Shown here one piece after another: positions 2,920 to 33,363 of a stretch of 64,000 nucleotides of DNA (position 1 is the first letter of the stretch; each line of letters opens with the position of its first letter). The notes under the pieces are model-generated. The model was not told where the DNA came from, did not search any database, and worked only from the letters and a program-made list of their open reading frames with translations. Source of the DNA: Gynuella sunshinyii YC6258. GTDB lineage: Bacteria; Pseudomonadota; Gammaproteobacteria; Pseudomonadales; Natronospirillaceae. Made by a program: the position numbers and the translations under genes. Location of the stretch: NCBI RefSeq assembly GCF_000940805.1, contig NZ_CP007142.1:408593-472592 (forward strand), in the 5' to 3' direction.

Positions 2920-5076
2920 ATGCAACAGAAAATAGCTTCTTTAAGTGTTAAAACAGCCTGGATATTATCCGCTGTGATGACTCTTACTGCCTGCACACTT
3001 AGTGGTGAGAGTAGCGATACCATTCAAAATATTGGGAAACCGAGTCCAATCAAAAGCCCAGTACCGACCATCACTCTGAATGGCAGCAGTAATATACAAA
3101 TTGCGGCTGGAAACAACTTCGAAGACCCGGGTGCGACAGCTTACGACGACCAGGATGGTGACCTGACAGGTTTTATCAATACCAAATCCGAGGTGAACAC
3201 CGCTGTTCCCGGACACTATAACATCGACTATTCCGTCACCGACTCCAACAAAAATACCGTATCTGTCTCCCGCACGGTTACCGTAGCCAAAAAGGGTGAT
3301 AACTACTATGTCGACTGGATTAAAGATTTTAGCCTGCCAGCTCAGGATAGTAATGGCTGGTCAGTTCTGACCCCTTCCAAAGACTCCAAAATAATGTATG
3401 TCAGCAACGATGGGAATGACGAAACAGCTAAAGTTTATACTCCAGACGACTCAACTGTTGGCAACGATGTTTTCAATCCTACTGGCGCAATTAAGCCCTA
3501 TGCCAGCATCGAAGCAGCGTTAGACCAACTACGACCTGGCAGCCCTGACTATGTTTTGCTTAAACGTGGCGATACCTGGGAAAGCCCTGAGGTAAACATT
3601 AAAGTTCATGGCCGCTCAGTTCAGGAAAAAGCGGTTTTAAGTGCATACGGTGACTTGGCAGATAACCGACCACTCATAAAAAACTCTGGAGCAATTCTGA
3701 ATAAAAGTGGATATCTGGCTATTGTTGGAATTCATTTTCAGGCCAGCAAACGTAACCCCAGCTCCAGCGATTTTGTTGGCTTTGACAAGGTCGATGACAC
3801 CAAAGGAATTAATGCGGCTTTATTCAATGATTATGGTGGTTTGCTGATCGAAGACTGTTGGTTTGAGTGGTTCGACAATAACTCTATTCAGTCATTTACA
3901 TTTGATAAGAATAATAATTTTTTGACCATTAAAGATATTATTGTTCGACGCAATATTTTTAATAATAACTATTCTACTGCGGCCCATTCCCAGGGTTTGT
4001 ATTCGGCATATACATCCATGCTACTGGAAGAAAATGTCTTTGATCACAATGGCTGGTATCAACAAGGTGACGGCAGTACTAAGAAAGATGGAAAAGCCAC
4101 AATGTTCAATCACAACACCTATTTCCCGGAAGCCCAGGGCTCTGTTTTTCGCAACAATATTTTTTTAAGAGCCTCAAGTATGGGTAACAAGTTCACGTCC
4201 AACTCTGAAGACTCGGAAGGCAGCAATAGTATTAAGGCCTGGAACATCCTGGTTGATAACAATTTTTATGCAGAGGGGGAAATTGGTATCAGTCTGGGAG
4301 GAAATAAAGATCAGGATGATGGGCCACGCTGGGAAAATATAATAGTCGTTAATAATGTCTTAACAGCAATTGGCAGGACGTTCCCAACGAATCGAACTTT
4401 AGGTTGGGGTATAGGCATCAGTGACTGGAAGAATGGACTGGTACAGAACAATCTGATGTTTAACTGGGGCCAGGATGATAATAAAAGTGGTGACTATAAA
4501 AACGTCTATGCCATTGACAGCAAAGGTCATGTGACCAATACCATCATTAATTACAATATTGCCTATGGACTTGTCACTGGTACAGCGGTCATCAGCTTTT
4601 CTGATCAGGGTGAAAAAGAGTTTGTCGCTCAGGCCAGTAACCATATTACCTTTACAAATAACCAAATCACTTTGCTTAAAGATTCAGGTGGCCGCATTAT
4701 GGCCTATGATATACAACCGAAAGCACAGAACTTTGCGAATAACGATTATCATTTCGACACCAACGATGCTTATTGGTTTCGTGCAACGGATAAGTACATC
4801 TGGTCAGAACTGAAAAGTAATCGGGATATTGATTTTGCTGGTTATCAAAGCATTAGTGAAGACAACACATCTATTCAGAATCGCCAATCCTACCCCGCCC
4901 CCAATCGAACGATTTCCGACTATCTGAAAGATAAGAATATTGACTCAACCGCCAATGCTACTACTGAAATGAATATTCTGGTCAATCTCCTGAAAACGCA
5001 GAGAAGGGGAAACTGGGATCAAAAGTTAACAGCAGGTGCGATCAATAACTATTTCCGGGAAGGATTTTCCCGTTAA
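2920..5076 (+). CDS. Lipoprotein, paralog B: lipobox signal, DUF5011-type Ig-like domain, then a right-handed parallel beta-helix. Putative polysaccharide lyase or glycosidase.
   Basis: ATG at 2920 is preceded by GGAG 8 nt upstream. Signal peptide MQQKIASLSVKTAWILSAVMTLTAC contains a lipobox (LTAC). The PGATAYDDQDGDLT motif indicates a DUF5011/Ig-like domain. The remainder is Asn-rich beta-helix repeats. Confidence 0.8.
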   Translation: MQQKIASLSVKTAWILSAVMTLTACTLSGESSDTIQNIGKPSPIKSPVPTITLNGSSNIQIAAGNNFEDPGATAYDDQDGDLTGFINTKSEVNTAVPGHYNIDYSVTDSNKNTVSVSRTVTVAKKGDNYYVDWIKDFSLPAQDSNGWSVLTPSKDSKIMYVSNDGNDETAKVYTPDDSTVGNDVFNPTGAIKPYASIEAALDQLRPGSPDYVLLKRGDTWESPEVNIKVHGRSVQEKAVLSAYGDLADNRPLIKNSGAILNKSGYLAIVGIHFQASKRNPSSSDFVGFDKVDDTKGINAALFNDYGGLLIEDCWFEWFDNNSIQSFTFDKNNNFLTIKDIIVRRNIFNNNYSTAAHSQGLYSAYTSMLLEENVFDHNGWYQQGDGSTKKDGKATMFNHNTYFPEAQGSVFRNNIFLRASSMGNKFTSNSEDSEGSNSIKAWNILVDNNFYAEGEIGISLGGNKDQDDGPRWENIIVVNNVLTAIGRTFPTNRTLGWGIGISDWKNGLVQNNLMFNWGQDDNKSGDYKNVYAIDSKGHVTNTIINYNIAYGLVTGTAVISFSDQGEKEFVAQASNHITFTNNQITLLKDSGGRIMAYDIQPKAQNFANNDYHFDTNDAYWFRATDKYIWSELKSNRDIDFAGYQSISEDNTSIQNRQSYPAPNRTISDYLKDKNIDSTANATTEMNILVNLLKTQRRGNWDQKLTAGAINNYFREGFSR

Positions 5077-25452: not shown

Positions 25453-26451
25453 CTATAACCGTAGTATATGGTCCTGAAAACTCATTTCCCTGCCGGTCAC
25501 ACGGGCGATAATCTGACGATTGGTCTCGCCATGATCCGACAAACCATCGCAACGAAACTCACCACCACCGGCCACCAGCATCGGCAGCATGATCTGATCC
25601 GCCAGATACTCATCCAGCACGGCATCACTTTGCAGATAACGGTTCACCTGCTTCAGCAGATTGCCGGCAACTTTTTCGGCACTGAGACGTGGTCGCCCTA
25701 ATTCGGTCAGGCAAATACGCGTCTTCTCAAAATGCAGATCAACAGCCAACAGGTTACCCGGCGAACTGCTTTTGGGTTGCCGGATCCGGGTTTCAGTGAC
25801 CGCCATCGGAGCACTGCGACAAAATACCTGTAGCTCACGTTCAGCGACCTGATTGCTCAGGCCGACTTCATAGGCACTGAGGCGACAGTTCAGCAGTTCA
25901 CCGCGCTGCAACCGGCTGATCGGTGACAGCACTGACGGTTTGATCGTTGCCTGCCAGCAACCTCCACCAGCCGGCATGAATCCCCAACGTTGAACATCCA
26001 GCTCAATCTGTGCGCCCATTTCCCGCAATAACGGCAAAAATGAACGCTTCAGATAGGTCAGGGGCGGCGCCATCGGGTTATGAGTGCCACCACGAAACTG
26101 CACCGTTGACGCGCCTTTGGCCTGCAGTAACGGCAGCGCGATGGTCTGGAATACCAGCGTGGTGCTGCCGGCACTGCCGACATCAAAATGGTAATCGCCG
26201 GATGTCACCGCGCCCGGCACGAAACGCAGTCGCGTTGACCCCAGTTCAGCCCCCTCAACCCAGGCACCACTGATAGTCTGAGCCGCCAGCACACAGGTCA
26301 GGTGCTGACGCATCAATCCCGGCTTGGGCCGGCCGCCACGAATGTGATGAATCTCAATCCCTTTGCCGGTCAGCATCGCCAGGGTCAGCGCCGAACGCAA
26401 AATCTGGCCGCCACCTTCACCCTGGCGACCATCCAGTTCAATCATGTCCAC
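25453..26451 (-). CDS. rtcA: RNA 3'-terminal phosphate cyclase
   Basis: LDGRQGEGGGQILRSALTLAML...GGRPKPGLMRQHL is closely similar to E. coli RtcA. Confidence 0.9.
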   Translation of the reverse strand: MDMIELDGRQGEGGGQILRSALTLAMLTGKGIEIHHIRGGRPKPGLMRQHLTCVLAAQTISGAWVEGAELGSTRLRFVPGAVTSGDYHFDVGSAGSTTLVFQTIALPLLQAKGASTVQFRGGTHNPMAPPLTYLKRSFLPLLREMGAQIELDVQRWGFMPAGGGCWQATIKPSVLSPISRLQRGELLNCRLSAYEVGLSNQVAERELQVFCRSAPMAVTETRIRQPKSSSPGNLLAVDLHFEKTRICLTELGRPRLSAEKVAGNLLKQVNRYLQSDAVLDEYLADQIMLPMLVAGGGEFRCDGLSDHGETNRQIIARVTGREMSFQDHILRL

Positions 26452-26458
26452 TACACAG

Positions 26459-27676
26459 TTATCCTTTTACACATACCACTTGTCTCAGGGTATGAACCAC
26501 TTCCACCAGGTCAGACTGAGCCGCCATAACCGCATCAATATTTTTATAAGCGCTGGGGGTCTCATCCACCACCGCCGCATCTTTTCGGCATTCCACATGG
26601 GCCGTCGCCAATGCATGCTCTTCAACACTCACCACTTTCTTGGCCTGGGTACGAGACATCACCCGTCCGGCTCCATGGCTACAACTGCAGAAGCTTTCCG
26701 CATTACCCTTACCCCGGACGATAAATGAGCGCGCACCCATGCTACCGGGAATAATTCCCAATTGACCTTCACGGGCGCTCACAGCACCTTTACGGGTCAA
26801 CCAGACATTTTTGTCGTAGTGGTGCTCTTTCTGCACGTAGTTATGGTGACAATTGACTGCCTCGCGCTCGACGATAACCGGTTTGTTCAGGGTAACCGCC
26901 AGCGCTTTCAAAGCCCGTCCCATCATCACCTGACGATTAATACGGGCAAAATCCTGAGCCCAGTCGACCGCTTCAACATAGTCGTTGAAATAGTCTGTTC
27001 CTTCGACCAGATACGACAAATCCCGGTCAGGCAACTGAATGAAGAAACGTTCCATTTCCTGTTTAGCCAGGCGGATAAAGTGTTCACCGATCCGGTTACC
27101 CACACCGCGGGAGCCGGAATGCAGCATGATCCAGACATCATCCTGTTCATCCAGACACACTTCAATAAAGTGATTGCCGGTACCCAACGTTCCCAGGTGT
27201 TTTACATTATTAGTGTTTTTTAATACGGGATGCTTATCGCACAACACCGTAAAACGATCAGCCAGCTGCTGTTGCCAGAATTGACCGACATCCTCCGGAA
27301 TATCATGCCAGGCACCCGGATCACGTTTTCGGGCTTTTCCTCCACCATGGGGAATGGCACGCTCCAGATTGCTACGCAGTTCTTTCAATGAGTCCGGCAA
27401 CTGATCGGCCCGGACATCGGTTTTGACGGCCATCATGCCACAGCCGATATCCACACCCACCGCTGCGGGAATGATGGCACCGGTGGTTGGAATCACCGAG
27501 CCGATAGTCGCTCCCTTACCAAAATGCACATCCGGCATTGCGGCCACCCATTTATGGATGAACGGTAGCGAGGCGAGGTTTTTCAATTGTTGCCGGGCTC
27601 CGTCCTCAAAAGGTACGCCGACGGTCCAGCTTTTTACCGGAACCCCTTTTTCCACGTTGATCACTTCAATGGCCAT
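26459..27676 (-). CDS. rtcB: RtcB RNA ligase (3'-phosphate/5'-OH RNA-splicing ligase)
   Basis: Length 405 aa. Metal-binding and GMP-histidine region motifs MLHSGSRGVGN and NCHHNY are present. Lies immediately upstream of rtcA. Confidence 0.9.
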   Translation of the reverse strand: MAIEVINVEKGVPVKSWTVGVPFEDGARQQLKNLASLPFIHKWVAAMPDVHFGKGATIGSVIPTTGAIIPAAVGVDIGCGMMAVKTDVRADQLPDSLKELRSNLERAIPHGGGKARKRDPGAWHDIPEDVGQFWQQQLADRFTVLCDKHPVLKNTNNVKHLGTLGTGNHFIEVCLDEQDDVWIMLHSGSRGVGNRIGEHFIRLAKQEMERFFIQLPDRDLSYLVEGTDYFNDYVEAVDWAQDFARINRQVMMGRALKALAVTLNKPVIVEREAVNCHHNYVQKEHHYDKNVWLTRKGAVSAREGQLGIIPGSMGARSFIVRGKGNAESFCSCSHGAGRVMSRTQAKKVVSVEEHALATAHVECRKDAAVVDETPSAYKNIDAVMAAQSDLVEVVHTLRQVVCVKG

Positions 27677-28015
27677 GATTTACTCCTTTTATTAAACCTG
27701 AAACTGTCATTCCGATACGGGTGACAGATTATCTAAACCGACACATTCAACGATGTAACAGGGTATTAACAAGAACAATGCCAAGAACCAAAATAAATAT
27801 AACTATTTGATAAATAAGACATTTTTATTTTTAACTCAATCACGATCAGCCAAAATTTATCGATATCGATCAACTATGATCATTTTCGAGTGGCAACAAG
27901 CCCAATGACATCACGCCCAAAGCCGTGATTACCTGCCCAAAGACTTTGTTTCGCCACAACCACCCCCACATTAAGGGACGACCCAGGCGTATCCTCTATC
28001 CAAGGAAACAACGTA

Positions 28016-28471
28016 ATGCATGAAACCCGCACAAATATTCAGCCCTTCTCAGACAGTCAGTGGCGCACTCTCAGCCTGAGCCCGGTGATTATATTTTTAC
28101 TGGTCGCCGCCGCCGACGGACATATCGATAACCGGGAAAAGCAGCAGTTTGTGGAATTACTGAAAGAGACAGAGAAGCGCCGTTCAGACAGATTGAAAAC
28201 ACTGCTTCAGGACGTGGCCCGGCAACTGACCGATTTATTGATGGTCGTGGCCAGCGAAACATTGGATATGATTGACGTGATAACGGAAACCGTCGATCTG
28301 GTGGAACAGCATCTTGAGCCCGAAGAAGCCCTGCTCTTCAAGCAGGACCTGCTCGACTTTGCCACTGAAATTGCCCGCAGCTCAGGCGGCCTGACCAGCG
28401 GCACAATTGATCGTCACGAGCAGCAGACGCTGGACCAAATCAGTCACTATCTGCGGCTCAATCTGTCCTGA
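28016..28471 (+). CDS. TerB-like (tellurite-resistance TerB / DjlA N-terminal-like) domain protein
   Basis: Helical protein of 151 aa with the VAAADGHIDNREKQQFVELL motif that resembles the TerB family. Assignment made by eye only. Confidence 0.4.
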   Translation: MHETRTNIQPFSDSQWRTLSLSPVIIFLLVAAADGHIDNREKQQFVELLKETEKRRSDRLKTLLQDVARQLTDLLMVVASETLDMIDVITETVDLVEQHLEPEEALLFKQDLLDFATEIARSSGGLTSGTIDRHEQQTLDQISHYLRLNLS

Positions 28472-28497: not shown

Positions 28498-29139
28498 TCA
28501 GTCGCGCAATCCCCATTCGGTTTCGACATCCTCCAGATCGCCCACATACGACAAGTCCACGCATTCCAGACTGAACATGTAGCGCACGTCTTCGATCAAC
28601 TCGCGGGCATCCAGATCCAACAAATGCCCCATCACCATGCCATTGAGCTCATAGTAGCGGGGATACGGTTTACGCATGTACTGGCGAAACATCTCCAGCA
28701 CTTCGCTTCTATGAGAAGGAAATGCCATGGCTATTTCCGCCAGCGAGTTCATCGAAATCGCATAAGCAAACTGATCCTCACCCTCCCGTTGCAGATACTC
28801 AGACAAAGGATTGATGGCTGCCGGTCCGATCAATGCCATTACCTTGTCCAGTTCAGTGATGGCAAAATCATCGCCACTGAAGCGGTCAAAGTTGTTGATC
28901 AGACTGTCTATCGCAGTCTCGGCCCGAAGTTGTCCCAGGGTCCGCCAGGCATGTACCGGTGCCCAGGTGGCAGGATCTTTGGGCTCAAGAGTATCGAAAT
29001 GTTCATCGCATACGACTGCGATCAGATCGGCAATATCAGACTCATCAAACCCATACTGCTCGGGGTATTGGGGCCATGGTGTTGAAATATGAGCTTCTCC
29101 CAGCTCGATCAGAGCCTGGATTTTTGGATTAGAGTGCAT
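28498..29139 (-). CDS. Conserved hypothetical acidic helical protein (possibly DUF1186-like)
   Basis: Clean ORF of 213 aa. No motif I can assign confidently. Confidence 0.45.
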   Translation of the reverse strand: MHSNPKIQALIELGEAHISTPWPQYPEQYGFDESDIADLIAVVCDEHFDTLEPKDPATWAPVHAWRTLGQLRAETAIDSLINNFDRFSGDDFAITELDKVMALIGPAAINPLSEYLQREGEDQFAYAISMNSLAEIAMAFPSHRSEVLEMFRQYMRKPYPRYYELNGMVMGHLLDLDARELIEDVRYMFSLECVDLSYVGDLEDVETEWGLRD

Positions 29140-29219: not shown

Positions 29220-30806
29220 TCACTGCACCCGTTCAAACTTTAGATCAAACTTGGCCAGATACTGTCGCAATCGATGCGAGTCATTGGCAGAACTTTTCTT
29301 TAATCGCGAACGATTGAACAGTTTACGACCCGCCTGAGAAATATTCTGACTGTCCCGACACACCGCCACCACATGACGGAGTTGCTGCTGGTCGAACAGA
29401 TCCATATCAGCCAGTTGTTCCGGCTCCAGGATTTCTTCCAGTGCCGGTAACGAGTCATTCACCTCTGCCGGTTTCCACCAGGTCAGCAAGCGCTCACACT
29501 CCTGTTGAACCAGAGCTTCATTGATACGTCCGCCATCCGAGAGGATACTCATACGCTGAATACAGGCATTGAGATCACGAAAATTACCTGACCACAAAGC
29601 CTCAGGACTGGTGGCAAAATCGAGAAATCGCTGCCGCGCGGTCTTGTTGAAACTGACTTTGTAACCCATCTGGCTTTCCGCCTGCTGCAACTCATAATCA
29701 AGATTGGGTTCAATATCTTCACGTCGATGCCGCAAACCGGGCAATTCGTAACTCCAGAGATTGATTCGCGCCAGCAGATCCTCCCGAAAACGGCCTTCCG
29801 CCACCTGCTGTTGAAGATCCCGATTGGTGCCGGCAATCAGCTGAAAATCGCTGCTGACGGGACCATCCGCACCCACCGGATAAAACGTCTTTTCTTCAAT
29901 GGCATGCAGCAACATGGCCTGTTCATCCAATCCCAGTTCACCAATTTCATCCAGAAACAACAAACCCTGATCAGCTTTGTTCAACAAACCTTTGCGGGCA
30001 TTCTGAGCGCCGGTGAACGCTCCTTTCTTATGACCAAACAATGCCGACATGGCACTGTCACCGCGCAAAGTGGCACAGTTCACCGCCACCAGCTCCCCCT
30101 GGATCGAGCCACGCATTTTTTTGAGCTCATAAATCCGGCTGGCCAGCTGTGATTTGCCCGCACCGGTCGGCCCGGTAATCAATATCGGCGCCACCGAACG
30201 GATTGCTACCTGCTCAATCTGCTGAATCATGGCATTGAACTGGCGATTGCGGGTGGCAATGCCAGATTTCAGAAACTCAGTGCCTTCCAGTTGCCGACGC
30301 TTGAAACGGGAACTGATGGCATCGTATTTGGAGAGATCCAGATCGATGAGATGGCACTGACCTGACACTCCATTATCGCCACGCCCAGGCGAGGTTTGCA
30401 GCAACACGGCCGGAACATAGTTGGCTTCGCACAACAGAAACCAGCAGATCTGCGCCACATGGGTACCGGTGGTGATGTGCAGCAGGTAGCGCTCCTGATC
30501 CGGCTTGAACGGATAATGCTCCACGAAGTCCAGCAGGGTGCTATAGACCTGCTCAAAATCCCATGGATTCTCAAACCGCAGCTCATGCAGCTGCACTTCG
30601 GTGTCGGGCGAGACCGTCTGCACGTCCGCGCCGACATTATTGGCCAGCCGATGGTCACGCGCATCGTGAATCAGCTCCAGACGATCCACCAGCAGATCCT
30701 CCTGCATGAAGATACCGACCGTCGGCCGCCATTTATTCCAGCGCTTGACCCCTTTACCGCGGGCATCCAGTACGGTGCCCAGCAAACCAATCACAACCGT
30801 TTTCAT
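29220..30806 (-). CDS. rtcR: RtcR, sigma54-dependent transcriptional activator with an N-terminal CARF-like sensor domain
   Basis: N-terminus MKTVVIGLLGTVLDARGKGVKRWNKWRPT parallels E. coli RtcR. AAA+ sigma54-interaction domain (GPTGAGKS, GAFTGA) and a C-terminal HTH. Start placed at the Met aligned to the E. coli RtcR start. Confidence 0.85.
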   Translation of the reverse strand: MKTVVIGLLGTVLDARGKGVKRWNKWRPTVGIFMQEDLLVDRLELIHDARDHRLANNVGADVQTVSPDTEVQLHELRFENPWDFEQVYSTLLDFVEHYPFKPDQERYLLHITTGTHVAQICWFLLCEANYVPAVLLQTSPGRGDNGVSGQCHLIDLDLSKYDAISSRFKRRQLEGTEFLKSGIATRNRQFNAMIQQIEQVAIRSVAPILITGPTGAGKSQLASRIYELKKMRGSIQGELVAVNCATLRGDSAMSALFGHKKGAFTGAQNARKGLLNKADQGLLFLDEIGELGLDEQAMLLHAIEEKTFYPVGADGPVSSDFQLIAGTNRDLQQQVAEGRFREDLLARINLWSYELPGLRHRREDIEPNLDYELQQAESQMGYKVSFNKTARQRFLDFATSPEALWSGNFRDLNACIQRMSILSDGGRINEALVQQECERLLTWWKPAEVNDSLPALEEILEPEQLADMDLFDQQQLRHVVAVCRDSQNISQAGRKLFNRSRLKKSSANDSHRLRQYLAKFDLKFERVQ

Positions 30807-30951
30807 ATGATCTATTTCGATAAATGACGATAAATTTCGATCAGTATTCCTAAAGACCGGGTCGGGGTCAATGCTGTACATTTATGCAAGAAATATAAAA
30901 AATATTTTAAAAACAATGAGTTATAAATTTTTTTAATACATCAGAACAAGC

Positions 30952-30967
30952 TGGCACAGAGCTTGGA
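30952..30967 (+). promoter_or_regulatory. Candidate sigma54 (-24/-12) promoter TGGCAC-agagc-TTGGA, reading toward the tRNA-like RNA and SPFH/NTase genes
   Basis: Perfect -24 TGGCAC with correct spacing. The -12 element is TTGG rather than the consensus TTGC. Divergent from rtcR, matching the position where RtcR-activated promoters lie in enterobacteria. Confidence 0.35.
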
Positions 30968-31076
30968 ATAACAATATTGAATGTGATCACTGGCAGCGGC
31001 GCGGGTTCTGTACACCCGCCTGGCATCCCTCTCCATGAGACCGGATGTACCGACAGTATCGGACAGTACATTCACA

Positions 31077-31152
31077 CGTTTGATAGCTCATACGGTAGAG
31101 CAGTTGACTCATAATCAATGGGTAACGGGTTCGAATCCCGTTCAAACATCCA
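31077..31152 (+). ncRNA. tRNA-like RNA with a CAT (Met-type) anticodon. It has a 76-nt canonical cloverleaf with an encoded CCA, a C1·A72 mismatch and an AU-rich acceptor stem.
   Basis: Manual fold: acceptor 31077-83/31142-48 (6 of 7 pairs); D-stem GCTC/GAGC; anticodon stem GTTGA/TCAAT with loop CTCATAA; T-stem ACGGG/CCCGT with T-loop TTCGAAT. The anticodon and T arm closely resemble elongator tRNA-Met. Confidence 0.55.
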
Positions 31153-31418
31153 TGGTAAAGCCCTTCCAGGCTCAGGGTTCAAATCCCTCTTTAAATATAA
31201 ACGGGCGCAAGCCCAAAGCGGTGTGCCGCGTTTATCAGACCCGTTGTCGATAAACCCGGGCATACCCGGACCCGGGAGCTGAAATGCCAGGGGCGCTGGC
31301 TGACGCCGGTGGGGGCCAGGGATGGTCGTAGATTCAGGTGTAATCCCCACCGGCCTCAGACAGTCAACCGGCATTCCCTCCCGGCATCTGATCAATATGG
31401 ATCAAAAAAGGAGTCGTT

Positions 31419-32582
31419 ATGAAATTGTGGACCTCCATCAGCGTGGCTGATGATGAAAGAGTTTTATTGTACCGGGACCGTCAGCTGGTCCGGGTACTGC
31501 ACAGCGGTCGCTATCGCATGTTTGATCCCGGCCGGCGCTACAGCACAGAAACCCTGTCGCTGCGCGAAGCCGGCGTCAAACATGGCAACCTTGAAGTACT
31601 GCTGACCCTGGAGATTTTCCGCGCCGAGGTGGACGTTGAAACCATCGGCCAGGAAGAAGTCGGCATCGTGCGTCTGGATGGACAGGTGAAAGCGGTATTG
31701 GAACCGGGATCGCGCTTTGTCCGCTGGCGCAGCAGTGAGAATCTGACGCTGGAATGCATCGACATTTCCAATAACTACCGCATCGCTCCGGCGTTGCTGG
31801 CGCAATTGGAACGCTCGGGTGTGAACGGCATCGGCAGCCATAAGGCCTGGATGCAGTTGACCGTGCCGGATCAGACACTGGGTCAGCTGTTTGTGGATGG
31901 TCGTCTGGCCGAGACCCTGCCGAGCGGCCGCTATGGTTTCTGGTTGTACAACCGGGAACTCAACACCCAGGTCAGTGACCTGAAGTGGCAATCGGTGGAA
32001 ATCAGCGGTCAGGAAATTCTGACCAGGGACCGGGTCAGCCTGCGGTTGAACCTGAACGCGGTTTACCGCTTCAGCGATGTGGTGAAGTTGCTGTCTCAGG
32101 TGAAAAGCCCTGGTGATTATATCTACCGGCGTTTGCAGCTGGCACTGCGGGAAACGGTCGGTACCCGCACTCTGGATGAGTTGCTGGCGGATAAAAACGC
32201 CATCGCCAAAACCATCACCAAATCGGTCAGCGAGCACTTGCAGGAGATGGGATTCGAACTCGAACAGATTGGTATAAAGGACATCATTCTGCCCGGTGAT
32301 ATGAAAGATATTCTGAATCAGGTGGTGCAGGCTCAGAAAACCGCCGAGGCCAACCTGATCCGCCGGCGGGAAGAGACTGCCGCAACCCGTTCGCTGCAAA
32401 ACACCGCCAGAATGATCGAGGGTAACCCGGTGCTGTTACGCCTGAAGGAACTGGAGGCACTGGAAAAAGTGGCGGATCGGATCGGTCATCTGACCGTATA
32501 CGGAGGGCTCGAAGGGGTCATGAATGGACTGGTATCTCTGACCGGGGCGGTGAAATCCTCCAACGGTCAAACAACCTCATAA
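31419..32582 (+). CDS. SPFH/band-7 (stomatin/HflK-like) domain protein with a roughly 200-aa N-terminal extension and no TM anchor
   Basis: Band-7 core DRVSLRLNLNAVYRFSD...ITKSVSEHLQEMGFELEQIGIKDIILPGDMKDILNQVVQAQKTAEANLIRRREETAATRS followed by a coiled-coil tail. No hydrophobic helix is present. Confidence 0.75.
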   Translation: MKLWTSISVADDERVLLYRDRQLVRVLHSGRYRMFDPGRRYSTETLSLREAGVKHGNLEVLLTLEIFRAEVDVETIGQEEVGIVRLDGQVKAVLEPGSRFVRWRSSENLTLECIDISNNYRIAPALLAQLERSGVNGIGSHKAWMQLTVPDQTLGQLFVDGRLAETLPSGRYGFWLYNRELNTQVSDLKWQSVEISGQEILTRDRVSLRLNLNAVYRFSDVVKLLSQVKSPGDYIYRRLQLALRETVGTRTLDELLADKNAIAKTITKSVSEHLQEMGFELEQIGIKDIILPGDMKDILNQVVQAQKTAEANLIRRREETAATRSLQNTARMIEGNPVLLRLKELEALEKVADRIGHLTVYGGLEGVMNGLVSLTGAVKSSNGQTTS

Positions 32583-32595
32583 CGGGAGACAGACA

Positions 32596-33363
32596 ATGGA
32601 ACAGAGAATCCTTGCAACGTTGGAGCGGATCGAATGGGAATACGGCGTGGATATCCTCTACGCCTGCGAATCCGGCAGTCGCGCCTGGGGCTTTGTCTCA
32701 CCGAACAGCGACTACGATGTCCGCTTCATCTATGTGCATCCACTGGATCACTATTTATCGGTGGGCAGGCAGCGGGATGTGATTGAAGAACCGATTATCG
32801 ATGATCTCGACATCAACGGCTGGGATCTGCGCAAGGCCCTCGGGCTGATGCGCGGCAGTAATCCCAGTCTGCTGGAGTGGCTGCATTCGCCGGTGGTGTA
32901 CCACAGTCGTGAGTGGTTTGAATACGAGCTGCGGGAACTGGCATTGCAAAGCCTGGATCGCCGGGCGTTGTTTCACCACTATCGCTCAATGGCCGGCAAT
33001 GACTGGCGAAAAGTACGCAAAGCCGACCGGGAAGTTCCCCTGAAGCGCTACTTTTACATGCTGCGCACCGCGCTGTGCGCGCTTTGGGTGATGGACCCTG
33101 ACAAACCGGCGATGCCACCGGTGGCATTCGCAGAACTACTGGCGCAAACAGACATGGATGCGGTCGTTCGGGCGACGATCGGGGAGCTGCAAACACTCAA
33201 GGCCAGTCTGGCCGAGAAATGCTCGATCCCCCGAGTCGTGGTGCTGGACGACTTTCTCGCCGATGCGTTTGCCCGTATGGATGCGGCCAGTCCGGAGAAA
33301 AGAGCGCCGATGCCACTGGCACCATTCGATCAACTGCTGATCAACACCGTAAGGGCGGCCTGA
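32596..33363 (+). CDS. Pol-beta-superfamily nucleotidyltransferase (the RNA-repair-associated NTase family)
   Basis: ESGSRAWGFVSPNSDYDVRFIY matches the hG[GS]...[DE]h[DE]h NTase signature. Length 255 aa. Lies 13 nt downstream of the SPFH gene. Confidence 0.65.
   Translation: MEQRILATLERIEWEYGVDILYACESGSRAWGFVSPNSDYDVRFIYVHPLDHYLSVGRQRDVIEEPIIDDLDINGWDLRKALGLMRGSNPSLLEWLHSPVVYHSREWFEYELRELALQSLDRRALFHHYRSMAGNDWRKVRKADREVPLKRYFYMLRTALCALWVMDPDKPAMPPVAFAELLAQTDMDAVVRATIGELQTLKASLAEKCSIPRVVVLDDFLADAFARMDAASPEKRAPMPLAPFDQLLINTVRAA

Follow-up and report, generated by a model that had tools for sequence, protein, structure and literature searches.

The window, a stretch of 64,000 nt from Gynuella sunshinyii YC6258, contains one tRNA-like element that is almost certainly a tRNA mimic rather than a translating tRNA. 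[quoted passage not shown] (bioRxiv 10.1101/312249), had already been predicted in 2016 by Burroughs & Aravind (NAR). Taken together, the element is probably a non-decoding RNA of the b7a type that is transcribed under the control of RtcR and sigma54 and acts as RNA partner of the Band-7 protein. The reading as a mimic follows from the pattern of conservation: the tRNA shape was kept, a fixed anticodon and a proper acceptor end were not. A non-decoding mimic of the band-7-associated type had been put forward in the original prediction and is now supported by gene context, positional conservation, the free anticodon, the frayed acceptor and the literature.

Sequence and fold of the tRNA-like element

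Over the whole 64 kb, ARAGORN called a single tRNA, tRNA-Met(CAT), at forward-strand positions 31077-31152. As originally described, it stands alone between rtcR and the Band-7/SPFH gene. The Rfam tRNA model RF00005 matched 31077-31149 over its full length (1-71/71) with 62.2 bits (E = 4e-11; gathering score 29). The family covariance model R1, built from Band-7-proximal elements as given below, scored 81.8 bits, ranking sixth of 282 matches. ARAGORN, Rfam and reading of the sequence together confirmed the predicted 76-nt cloverleaf with CAT anticodon, C1·A72 and encoded CCA.

The acceptor arm (31077-31083/31142-31148) comprised C1·A72, G2:C71, U3:A70, U4:A69, U5:A68, G6:C67 and A7:U66. The mismatch had thus been named correctly, but the A-U run consisted of three consecutive U:A pairs plus A7:U66 and not of four consecutive pairs. 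The D stem was GCUC/GAGC with a D loop of 8 nt. By frequency, this length ranked first among the canonical array tRNAs and second within the tRNA-like class, so the D loop was not atypically short as had been claimed. The anticodon stem (31103-31107/31115-31119) held five pairs, G27·U43, U:A, U:A, G:C and A:U, and enclosed the 7-nt loop CUCAUAA (31108-31114) with U33 and with CAT at 31110-31112. The T stem ACGGG/CCCGU and the T loop UUCGAAU completed a stem plan that corresponded to the predicted one, including the 7-nt loop with U33 and the TTCGAAT T-loop. The discriminator base was U73 (31149), also as predicted, followed by the encoded CCA (31150-31152) in canonical register. In the minimum free energy fold of the 76-mer alone, the acceptor, D and T arms were formed and the anticodon arm took an alternative register, whereas family covariation backed the canonical register.

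At E <= 10, RF00005 was the only Rfam family detected in 30700-31500, with no match to Y RNA, T-box or other families. The suspected relation to YrlA-type RNAs was therefore not borne out by Rfam. In 20 related loci, searched at gathering score, RF00005 was again the only family, and the leader showed no Rfam family. DNA searches of E. coli genomes with the element body gave weak best matches to ordinary tRNA-Lys and tRNA-Val genes and not to tRNA-Met; a homologous locus was not found in these genomes. The proposed likeness to elongator tRNA-Met applied to the CAU in a 7-nt loop with U33.

Genomic context and predicted transcription

The genes rtcR, rtcB, rtcA and RlaP were all located no more than 6 kb from the element (Table 1). 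The rtcR product combined an RtcR/CARF N-domain with a sigma54-interaction AAA+ domain, and the gene was divergent from the tRNA-like/Band-7 unit. The gap of 612 nt between rtcR and Band-7 contained both a sigma54-type site and the element. RlaP started 14 nt past the Band-7 stop. A TerB-like and a DUF1186 gene on opposite strands were inserted between rtcB and rtcR, splitting the usual rtcR-rtcBA arrangement; the pair was also present in the Gynuella locus L001 and missing from the Hahella locus L002. A TROVE (Ro) domain was not found among the locus genes with Pfam, and a canonical tRNA array was not present in the 64-kb window.

Table 1. Genes, predicted promoters and RNA features around the tRNA-like element, in window coordinates.
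Feature	Position	Strand	Evidence
rtcA	25453-26451	-	Pfam RTC 4.4e-73
rtcB	26459-27676	-	Pfam RtcB 6e-133
sigma54-like site, TGGCATTGTTCTTGT, upstream of rtcB	27783-27768	-	regex match
TerB-like gene	28016-28471	+	Pfam
DUF1186 gene	28498-29139	-	Pfam
rtcR, 528 aa, start MKTVV	29220-30806	-	Pfam PF06956 RtcR 1.2e-82, PF00158 4.9e-50
putative sigma54-type promoter TGGCAC-N5-TTGGA (-24/-12)	30952-30967	+	pattern match
5' leader before tRNA-like element	30978-31076	+	weak T-arm-like hairpin at 30998-31019
tRNA-like RNA, b7a-tRNA class	31077-31152	+	ARAGORN, Rfam tRNA, family model R1, family covariation
structured 3' leader up to Band-7 ATG	31153-31418	+	fold z-score -4.4
Band-7/SPFH ('slipin') protein, 387 aa	31419-32582	+	Pfam PF01145 2.3e-27
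RlaP (PF10127), RNA-repair Pol-beta nucleotidyltransferase	32596-33363	+	Pfam 5.8e-80

The putative promoter was the only match to the sigma54 pattern in the 64-kb window (expected 0.06). Transcription of the Band-7 unit would start near 30978. The element begins about 100 nt past this presumed start, about 110 nt 3' of the promoter and 267 nt 5' of the Band-7 ATG on the same strand. No terminator-like site was found on the + strand between the element and the ATG. Based on the sigma54 site, the distance from the start and the lack of a terminator before the ATG, the element would most plausibly belong to a Band-7-RlaP transcript that depends on RtcR. L001, L002, L003 and L008 held an equivalent sigma54 site in the corresponding position, as did L046, L054, L095 and L100. 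The pattern was present in only 5 of 80 metagenome Band-7 loci, so different promoters must serve most loci of the array type. In the regions of the two sigma54-type sites (27768-27783 on the - strand and 30952-30990 on the + strand), the predicted transcripts of the rtcB and Band-7 units both start with a common TTGAATGTG motif, and GAATGTGATC was found in L002 too.

The 5' leader was conserved in L001 and L002 only, as judged by nhmmer. Its T-arm-like hairpin was a weak local cmsearch match to positions 46-65 of R1 (E = 0.5). The 3' leader was more stable than all of its 200 shuffles, and RNAalifold showed compensatory change in 15 of 50 pairs among the window sequence, L001, L002 and L046. 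It also contained a GNRA-capped hairpin, a long hairpin of about 110 nt and the Shine-Dalgarno sequence AAGGAG. At its beginning, GGUAAAGC was followed by a T-arm-like hairpin, AGGGUUCAAAUCCCU (31156-31196, core 31174-31188; T-arm match E = 0.003); together they are probably what is left of another such tRNA-like unit. Two or three tandem tRNA-like units were observed in many relatives. With either leader as query, nhmmer gave matches only to Gynuella and Hahella relatives. Many metagenome loci held a different conserved leader at the equivalent place, with the blocks GCAGTACCCGGG, GCAACAGCC, GGCGCGGC and CCCGTCG.

Linkage to Band-7 in genomes and metagenomes

The tRNA-like element is linked to Band-7 and not to RtcR or RtcB, and it was found 5' of Band-7 homologs in distantly related bacteria. 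A search for RlaP relatives gave 42 genome loci, six of which also held Band-7. Five of these six showed an ARAGORN tRNA-like element just 5' of Band-7. It was reported as Met cat in L001 (Gynuella), as undetermined with a 2-nt 'anticodon' in L002 (Hahella), as Glu ttc plus Asn gtt in L003 and Leu tag plus Ile aat in L008 (both Aliikangiella), and as 'Pyl' in L028 (Erysipelotrichaceae). The sigma54 site and the leader layout were common to the four Proteobacterial loci L001, L002, L003 and L008. The Hahella ortholog had the 6-nt loop CUUGAC, U1·U72 and no CCA, and L001 kept C1·A72 and had lost the CCA register. RlaP loci without Band-7 held only ordinary tRNAs, with the exception of L029.

A Band-7 alignment search yielded 80 metagenome loci, 73 of them with at least 300 nt upstream. 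ARAGORN placed a same-strand element 260-710 nt 5' of the Band-7 ATG in 62 of the 73. The covariance model R1, built from 30 Band-7-proximal elements, added shorter copies in six more loci, resulting in about 68 of 73 Band-7 loci with an element. All 282 R1 matches were on the Band-7 strand. The median distance was 388 nt. In 47 of the 80 Band-7 loci, the element was present and neither RtcR nor RtcB was encoded in the fetched flanks of 2.5 kb per side. L050 and L105 had it between rtcB and Band-7, indicating that the element travels with Band-7. In the Firmicute loci L006 (4896-5996) and L028 (3603-4703), Erysipelotrichales with a Band-7-RtcB-RlaP arrangement, neither the family model nor the Rfam tRNA model gave a match. 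In L028, the only signal was a weak ARAGORN 'tRNA-Pyl' of 80 nt (3226-3305), in which the T arm was good. In the Erysipelotrichales loci, the RNA partner may have diverged or be missing.

Directly 5' of many Band-7 homologs, 5-20 tRNA genes of canonical appearance were arrayed on the same strand, comprising many isotypes with CCA and 7-nt loops. Examples were L049 (27-2020), L052 (543-2228), L057 (573-2152), L111 (664-2124), L078, L053, L109, L079 and L087. The non-canonical tRNA-like unit was always the last before Band-7 in such loci. A second tRNA-like class was present just 5' of the proximal unit, having an anticodon-arm loop of 4-6 nt, a well-paired acceptor and often CCA; ARAGORN reported it with 2-nt 'anticodons'. 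It included L048 1399-1470, L052 2084-2153, L055 105-178, L056 2080-2151, L081 2061-2128 and L104 1505-1572, among others. Canonical tRNAs also followed Band-7 directly, at about +1180 to +1420 from its start in L106, L111, L112, L113 and L115 and at +1200 to +1800 in L050 and L053. These were Arg gcg, Gln ctg and Leu cag, or Leu, Val, Gln, Trp and Arg. Band-7 is hence embedded inside the tRNA array in several loci. A common partner was not found among the genes 3' of Band-7 in array-type loci, which were heterogeneous (HEAT, carbamoyltransferase, TIR, AAA).

Conserved and variable features of the class

Selection keeps the fold of the class, with all four stems and the D-loop/T-loop elbow, and does not keep the anticodon, a closed 1:72 pair or CCA. 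In the seed alignment, 93.5% of the cloverleaf cells were paired, compared to 73.7% in shuffles and 33-43% in slid registers. Double-sided changes occurred in 130 cells versus 35 in shuffles, and none of 500 shuffles reached 130. The cloverleaf pairs of the homologous loci thus covary strongly, in line with the predicted fold. U8, A14, G18, G19, A21, G53, U54, U55, C56, A58 and C61 were invariant. Covariation, together with an elbow that stays invariant among Band-7 homologs sharing only 39-50% identity, led to the rejection of a functionless decaying pseudogene.

The element nearest Band-7 (n=62) was compared to canonical array tRNAs located farther off in the same loci (n=61). Pair 1:72 was formed in 17 of 62 Band-7-proximal elements and in 54 of 61 array tRNAs. 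The remaining 45 proximal elements were open at 1:72, with many base combinations. All seven acceptor pairs were formed in 6/62 versus 54/61, and N73-CCA was present in 4/62 versus 54/61. The anticodon loop deviated from 7 nt in 11 proximal elements (4-6 nt) and in none of the array tRNAs. Further counts were made for the proximal elements: among the 51 with 7-nt loops, U33 was absent in 11 and A34 was present in 14, and the 62 elements had 20 different anticodons. With 1:72 open in most of the class and with anticodon and CCA variable, C1·A72 is a class trait, and CAT and CCA are not conserved. Loop positions 32, 33, 37 and 38 were fairly conserved, so the loop could be read by something.

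The window copy was unusual in having CCA in canonical register, as in only 4 of 62 class members. Its 7-nt CUCAUAA loop, the CCA in register and the 62 bits of the tRNA model make it more tRNA-like than most, which counts against the reading as a mimic. The element may be weakly charged.

Identity of the element

For EF-Tu, an elongator tRNA must have its 1:72 pair closed, and A73 is the discriminator base that MetRS prefers. The element shares the CAU in a 7-nt loop with U33 with elongator tRNA-Met, but has C1·A72 and U73, and the anticodon was not conserved in orthologs (CUUGAC in L002; 20 anticodons in the class). Elongator identity was rejected on these three points. C1·A72 is a feature of initiator tRNA-fMet, but 1:72 is generally open in the Band-7-proximal class. 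The other initiator features, three G:C pairs at 29-31:39-41, A11:U24 and A73, were absent (11:24 is C:G, position 73 is U), and this identity was rejected as well. TilS of E. coli uses C4:G69 and C5:G68 of tRNA-Ile2, a determinant that may differ in other species. The element has U4:A69 and U5:A68, excluding an E. coli-type tRNA-Ile2. Membership in the YrlA family, in which a Ro-binding helix replaces the anticodon arm next to rsr, was rejected based on the intact 5-bp anticodon stem and a locus with no Ro gene.

The characteristics of b7a-tRNAs that can be read from sequence and gene context were found. The element resembles authentic tRNA according to ARAGORN and RF00005 and is followed by a same-strand Band-7/SPFH gene (PF01145) 267 nt downstream. 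Its neighbourhood comprises rtcR, rtcB, rtcA and RlaP, and R1 revealed homology to the elements of other Band-7 loci (81.8 bits; about 68/73 loci).

Band-7 and RlaP proteins

The Band-7 protein had no predicted transmembrane segment, with a maximum hydropathy of 1.06. Its AF2 model (mean pLDDT 81) comprised three N-terminal five-strand beta repeats, the SPFH domain and a long helix. The N-terminus consisted of three copies of a beta unit of about 45 aa with the motif (P/S)G(R/S)(Y/F). Foldseek with this model detected stomatin, HflK and prohibitin, and MVP/vault along the whole length (445-470 alignment columns, TMq about 0.4). A sequence profile searched against the PDB found stomatin only and not MVP. 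Kinship to MVP by sequence was therefore not supported, and the likeness comes from the fold search. The model suggests a soluble protein with an oligomer-type fold. For RlaP, homologs from Pseudomonas add 1-2 NMP to the 3'-OH of damaged RNA (PMC12776372).

Proposed role and alternative explanations

[quoted passage not shown] These published results agree with the response of RtcR to tRNA fragments assumed in the original prediction. In Gynuella, damaged tRNA fragments may switch RtcR on as they do in Salmonella. The element, placed inside the 5' leader of the Band-7-RlaP operon, would be transcribed from the RtcR/sigma54-dependent promoter and would thus be made only when RtcR is switched on. 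The tRNA-like RNA may then be released or processed from the leader. Its most likely role would be that of cognate partner of the soluble SPFH protein of cage-forming type encoded just downstream, a pairing that would be analogous to Ro60 with YrlA. The RNA could give the repair module of RtcB, RtcA and RlaP a tRNA-shaped handle, platform or mimic. A further step, which we regard as fairly improbable, would make the tRNA-like RNA, perhaps with the downstream leader, the RNA part of a soluble vault-like SPFH cage, a 'mini-vault' RNP. Such a cage would assemble on tRNA damage and hold or present broken tRNAs to RtcB and RlaP, and the long tRNA arrays beside many homologs could be a spare-parts store.

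The most serious rival is a cis-acting leader, as the leader is structured and partly covarying. The tRNA shape and the structured downstream leader would act on the Band-7 mRNA, either as an entry for RNase P/RNase Z that trims and stabilises the mRNA or as a 5'UTR gating Band-7 translation, and no trans RNA would be needed. The constant same-strand location 260-710 nt 5' of Band-7, also within operons such as those of L050 and L105, is consistent with this, as are the lack of a terminator before the ATG and the strong structure of the downstream leader (z = -4.4) with some compensatory changes. Frayed acceptors and missing CCA also point to many copies escaping tRNA-type maturation. The structured conserved leader is at least as compatible with cis regulation as with an RNP acting in trans. 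However, the sequence of the downstream leader was not conserved past close relatives, unlike the tRNA-like unit, and the invariance of all elbow nucleotides exceeds what a cleavage signal needs. In the literature, b7a-tRNA and YrlA are moreover reported to swap partners, and YrlA is a free RNA. We consider the cis model unlikely as the main explanation.

A role as decoy or sensor would start from the anticodon loop, in which C32, U33, A37 and A38 were kept and positions 34-36 varied between close relatives. The anticodons UUC and GUU in L003 versus UAG and AAU in L008 could reflect tuning to different toxins. The mimic would bait tRNA-targeting nucleases, and the resulting 5' halves with cyclic phosphate would bind the RtcR CARF domain, as 5' tRNA halves do, and so strengthen induction, or the toxin would be soaked up; a 'sponge' role has been proposed in the literature for array tRNAs. 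Against this, the location behind an RtcR-dependent promoter means that the element cannot be the primary sensor. The 47 of 80 Band-7 loci with the element but without RtcR or RtcB in the 2.5 kb fetched on each side tie its role to Band-7 and not to RtcR, and the 11 of 62 loops shortened to 4-6 nt are poor anticodon-nuclease substrates. This explanation appears very unlikely. A genuine stress-inducible decoding tRNA, either a spare tRNA-Met or a tRNA-Ile2 after lysidine formation, is more improbable still and hardly credible. The canonical loop, the presence of all tertiary nucleotides, the CCA in canonical place and the score of 62.2 bits with the general tRNA model would suit it, and rtcB-linked inducible tRNA arrays are functional in Anabaena. 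It conflicts with C1·A72 and U73 in view of EF-Tu and MetRS, the missing initiator G29-31:C39-41 run and A11:U24, and U4:A69 and U5:A68 where E. coli TilS uses C:G pairs. Further arguments against decoding are the 6-nt loop and missing CCA of the Hahella ortholog and a class lacking the anticodon and acceptor constraint of the canonical tRNAs in the same loci.

Broken tRNAs are sensed and repaired by RtcR/RtcB systems, which have Band-7, RlaP and the tRNA-like RNA as accessory parts. With its single element, predicted RtcR/sigma54 promoter and operon of two genes, the Gynuella locus is a clean test case. Rules that can be tested emerge from the comparative set: an L-shape with its elbow is needed, anticodon, 1:72 and CCA can be dispensed with, and the element is linked to Band-7. 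Genome annotation will wrongly list elements of this kind as genes for tRNA-Met, Ile, Leu, 'Stop' or an undetermined tRNA.

Comparison with known systems

The vault combines MVP with its SPFH-like shoulder, vault RNA and the TROVE protein TEP1. Band-7 has a like fold order and would likewise be paired with a small structured RNA. Its likeness to MVP is at fold level only and known here from a model, and vault RNA is not tRNA-like.

The rtcB-linked tRNA L-arrays (PMC8421152), a publication in which no mention of Band-7 or SPFH was found, also link extra tRNA genes to RNA-repair or stress genes. Inducible arrays of this type are functional in Anabaena, where array tRNAs are aminoacylated. Array tRNAs differ from the Band-7-proximal class in being canonical, with 54/61 paired at 1:72, 54/61 carrying CCA and 7-nt loops throughout. 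In L051 (1174-1842), an HNH endonuclease gene was located between the tRNA array and the Band-7-proximal unit, recalling the HNH genes reported beside cyanobacterial L-arrays.

YrlA, the partner of Rsr/Ro60 in rsr-yrlBA-rtcBA operons, shares with the element the tRNA mimicry, an RtcR-controlled RNA-repair operon and a ring- or cage-type scaffold protein as partner. In YrlA, a long Ro-binding helix replaces the anticodon arm and the gene lies beside a TROVE gene. The window element has an intact anticodon arm, a locus without a TROVE gene and an RNA upstream of its presumed protein partner. A YrlA-type counterpart was present in the Paracoccaceae locus L029 (859-2830), which held rtcR, Ro60/TROVE, tRNA-like RNAs, RtcB, Hen1 and RlaP. 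The tRNA-like RNAs comprised a T-arm hairpin (2600-2621), a 150-nt unit (2642-2791) and a further unit from near 2800. In the 150-nt unit, which R1 detected, an insert of about 80 nt replaces the anticodon arm, giving a split tRNA-like RNA beside Ro60/TROVE in a slot equivalent to that of the Band-7-linked element.

The closest known system is the b7a-tRNA itself. Wang et al. (bioRxiv 10.1101/312249) present it as a predicted ncRNA with a strong likeness to tRNA, located beside Band-7 and RtcB. According to the same source, it and YrlA can stand in for each other in some genomes and are treated as functional analogs. It was without experimental validation as of 2018; none was found in the later literature. 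Measured against this description, the window element has the same tRNA likeness, Band-7 adjacency and RtcB neighbourhood and shows no essential difference. The present analysis adds that the terminal acceptor pair is usually open, that CCA is usually missing and the anticodon free, and that the units often occur as tandem pairs and often after long tRNA arrays.
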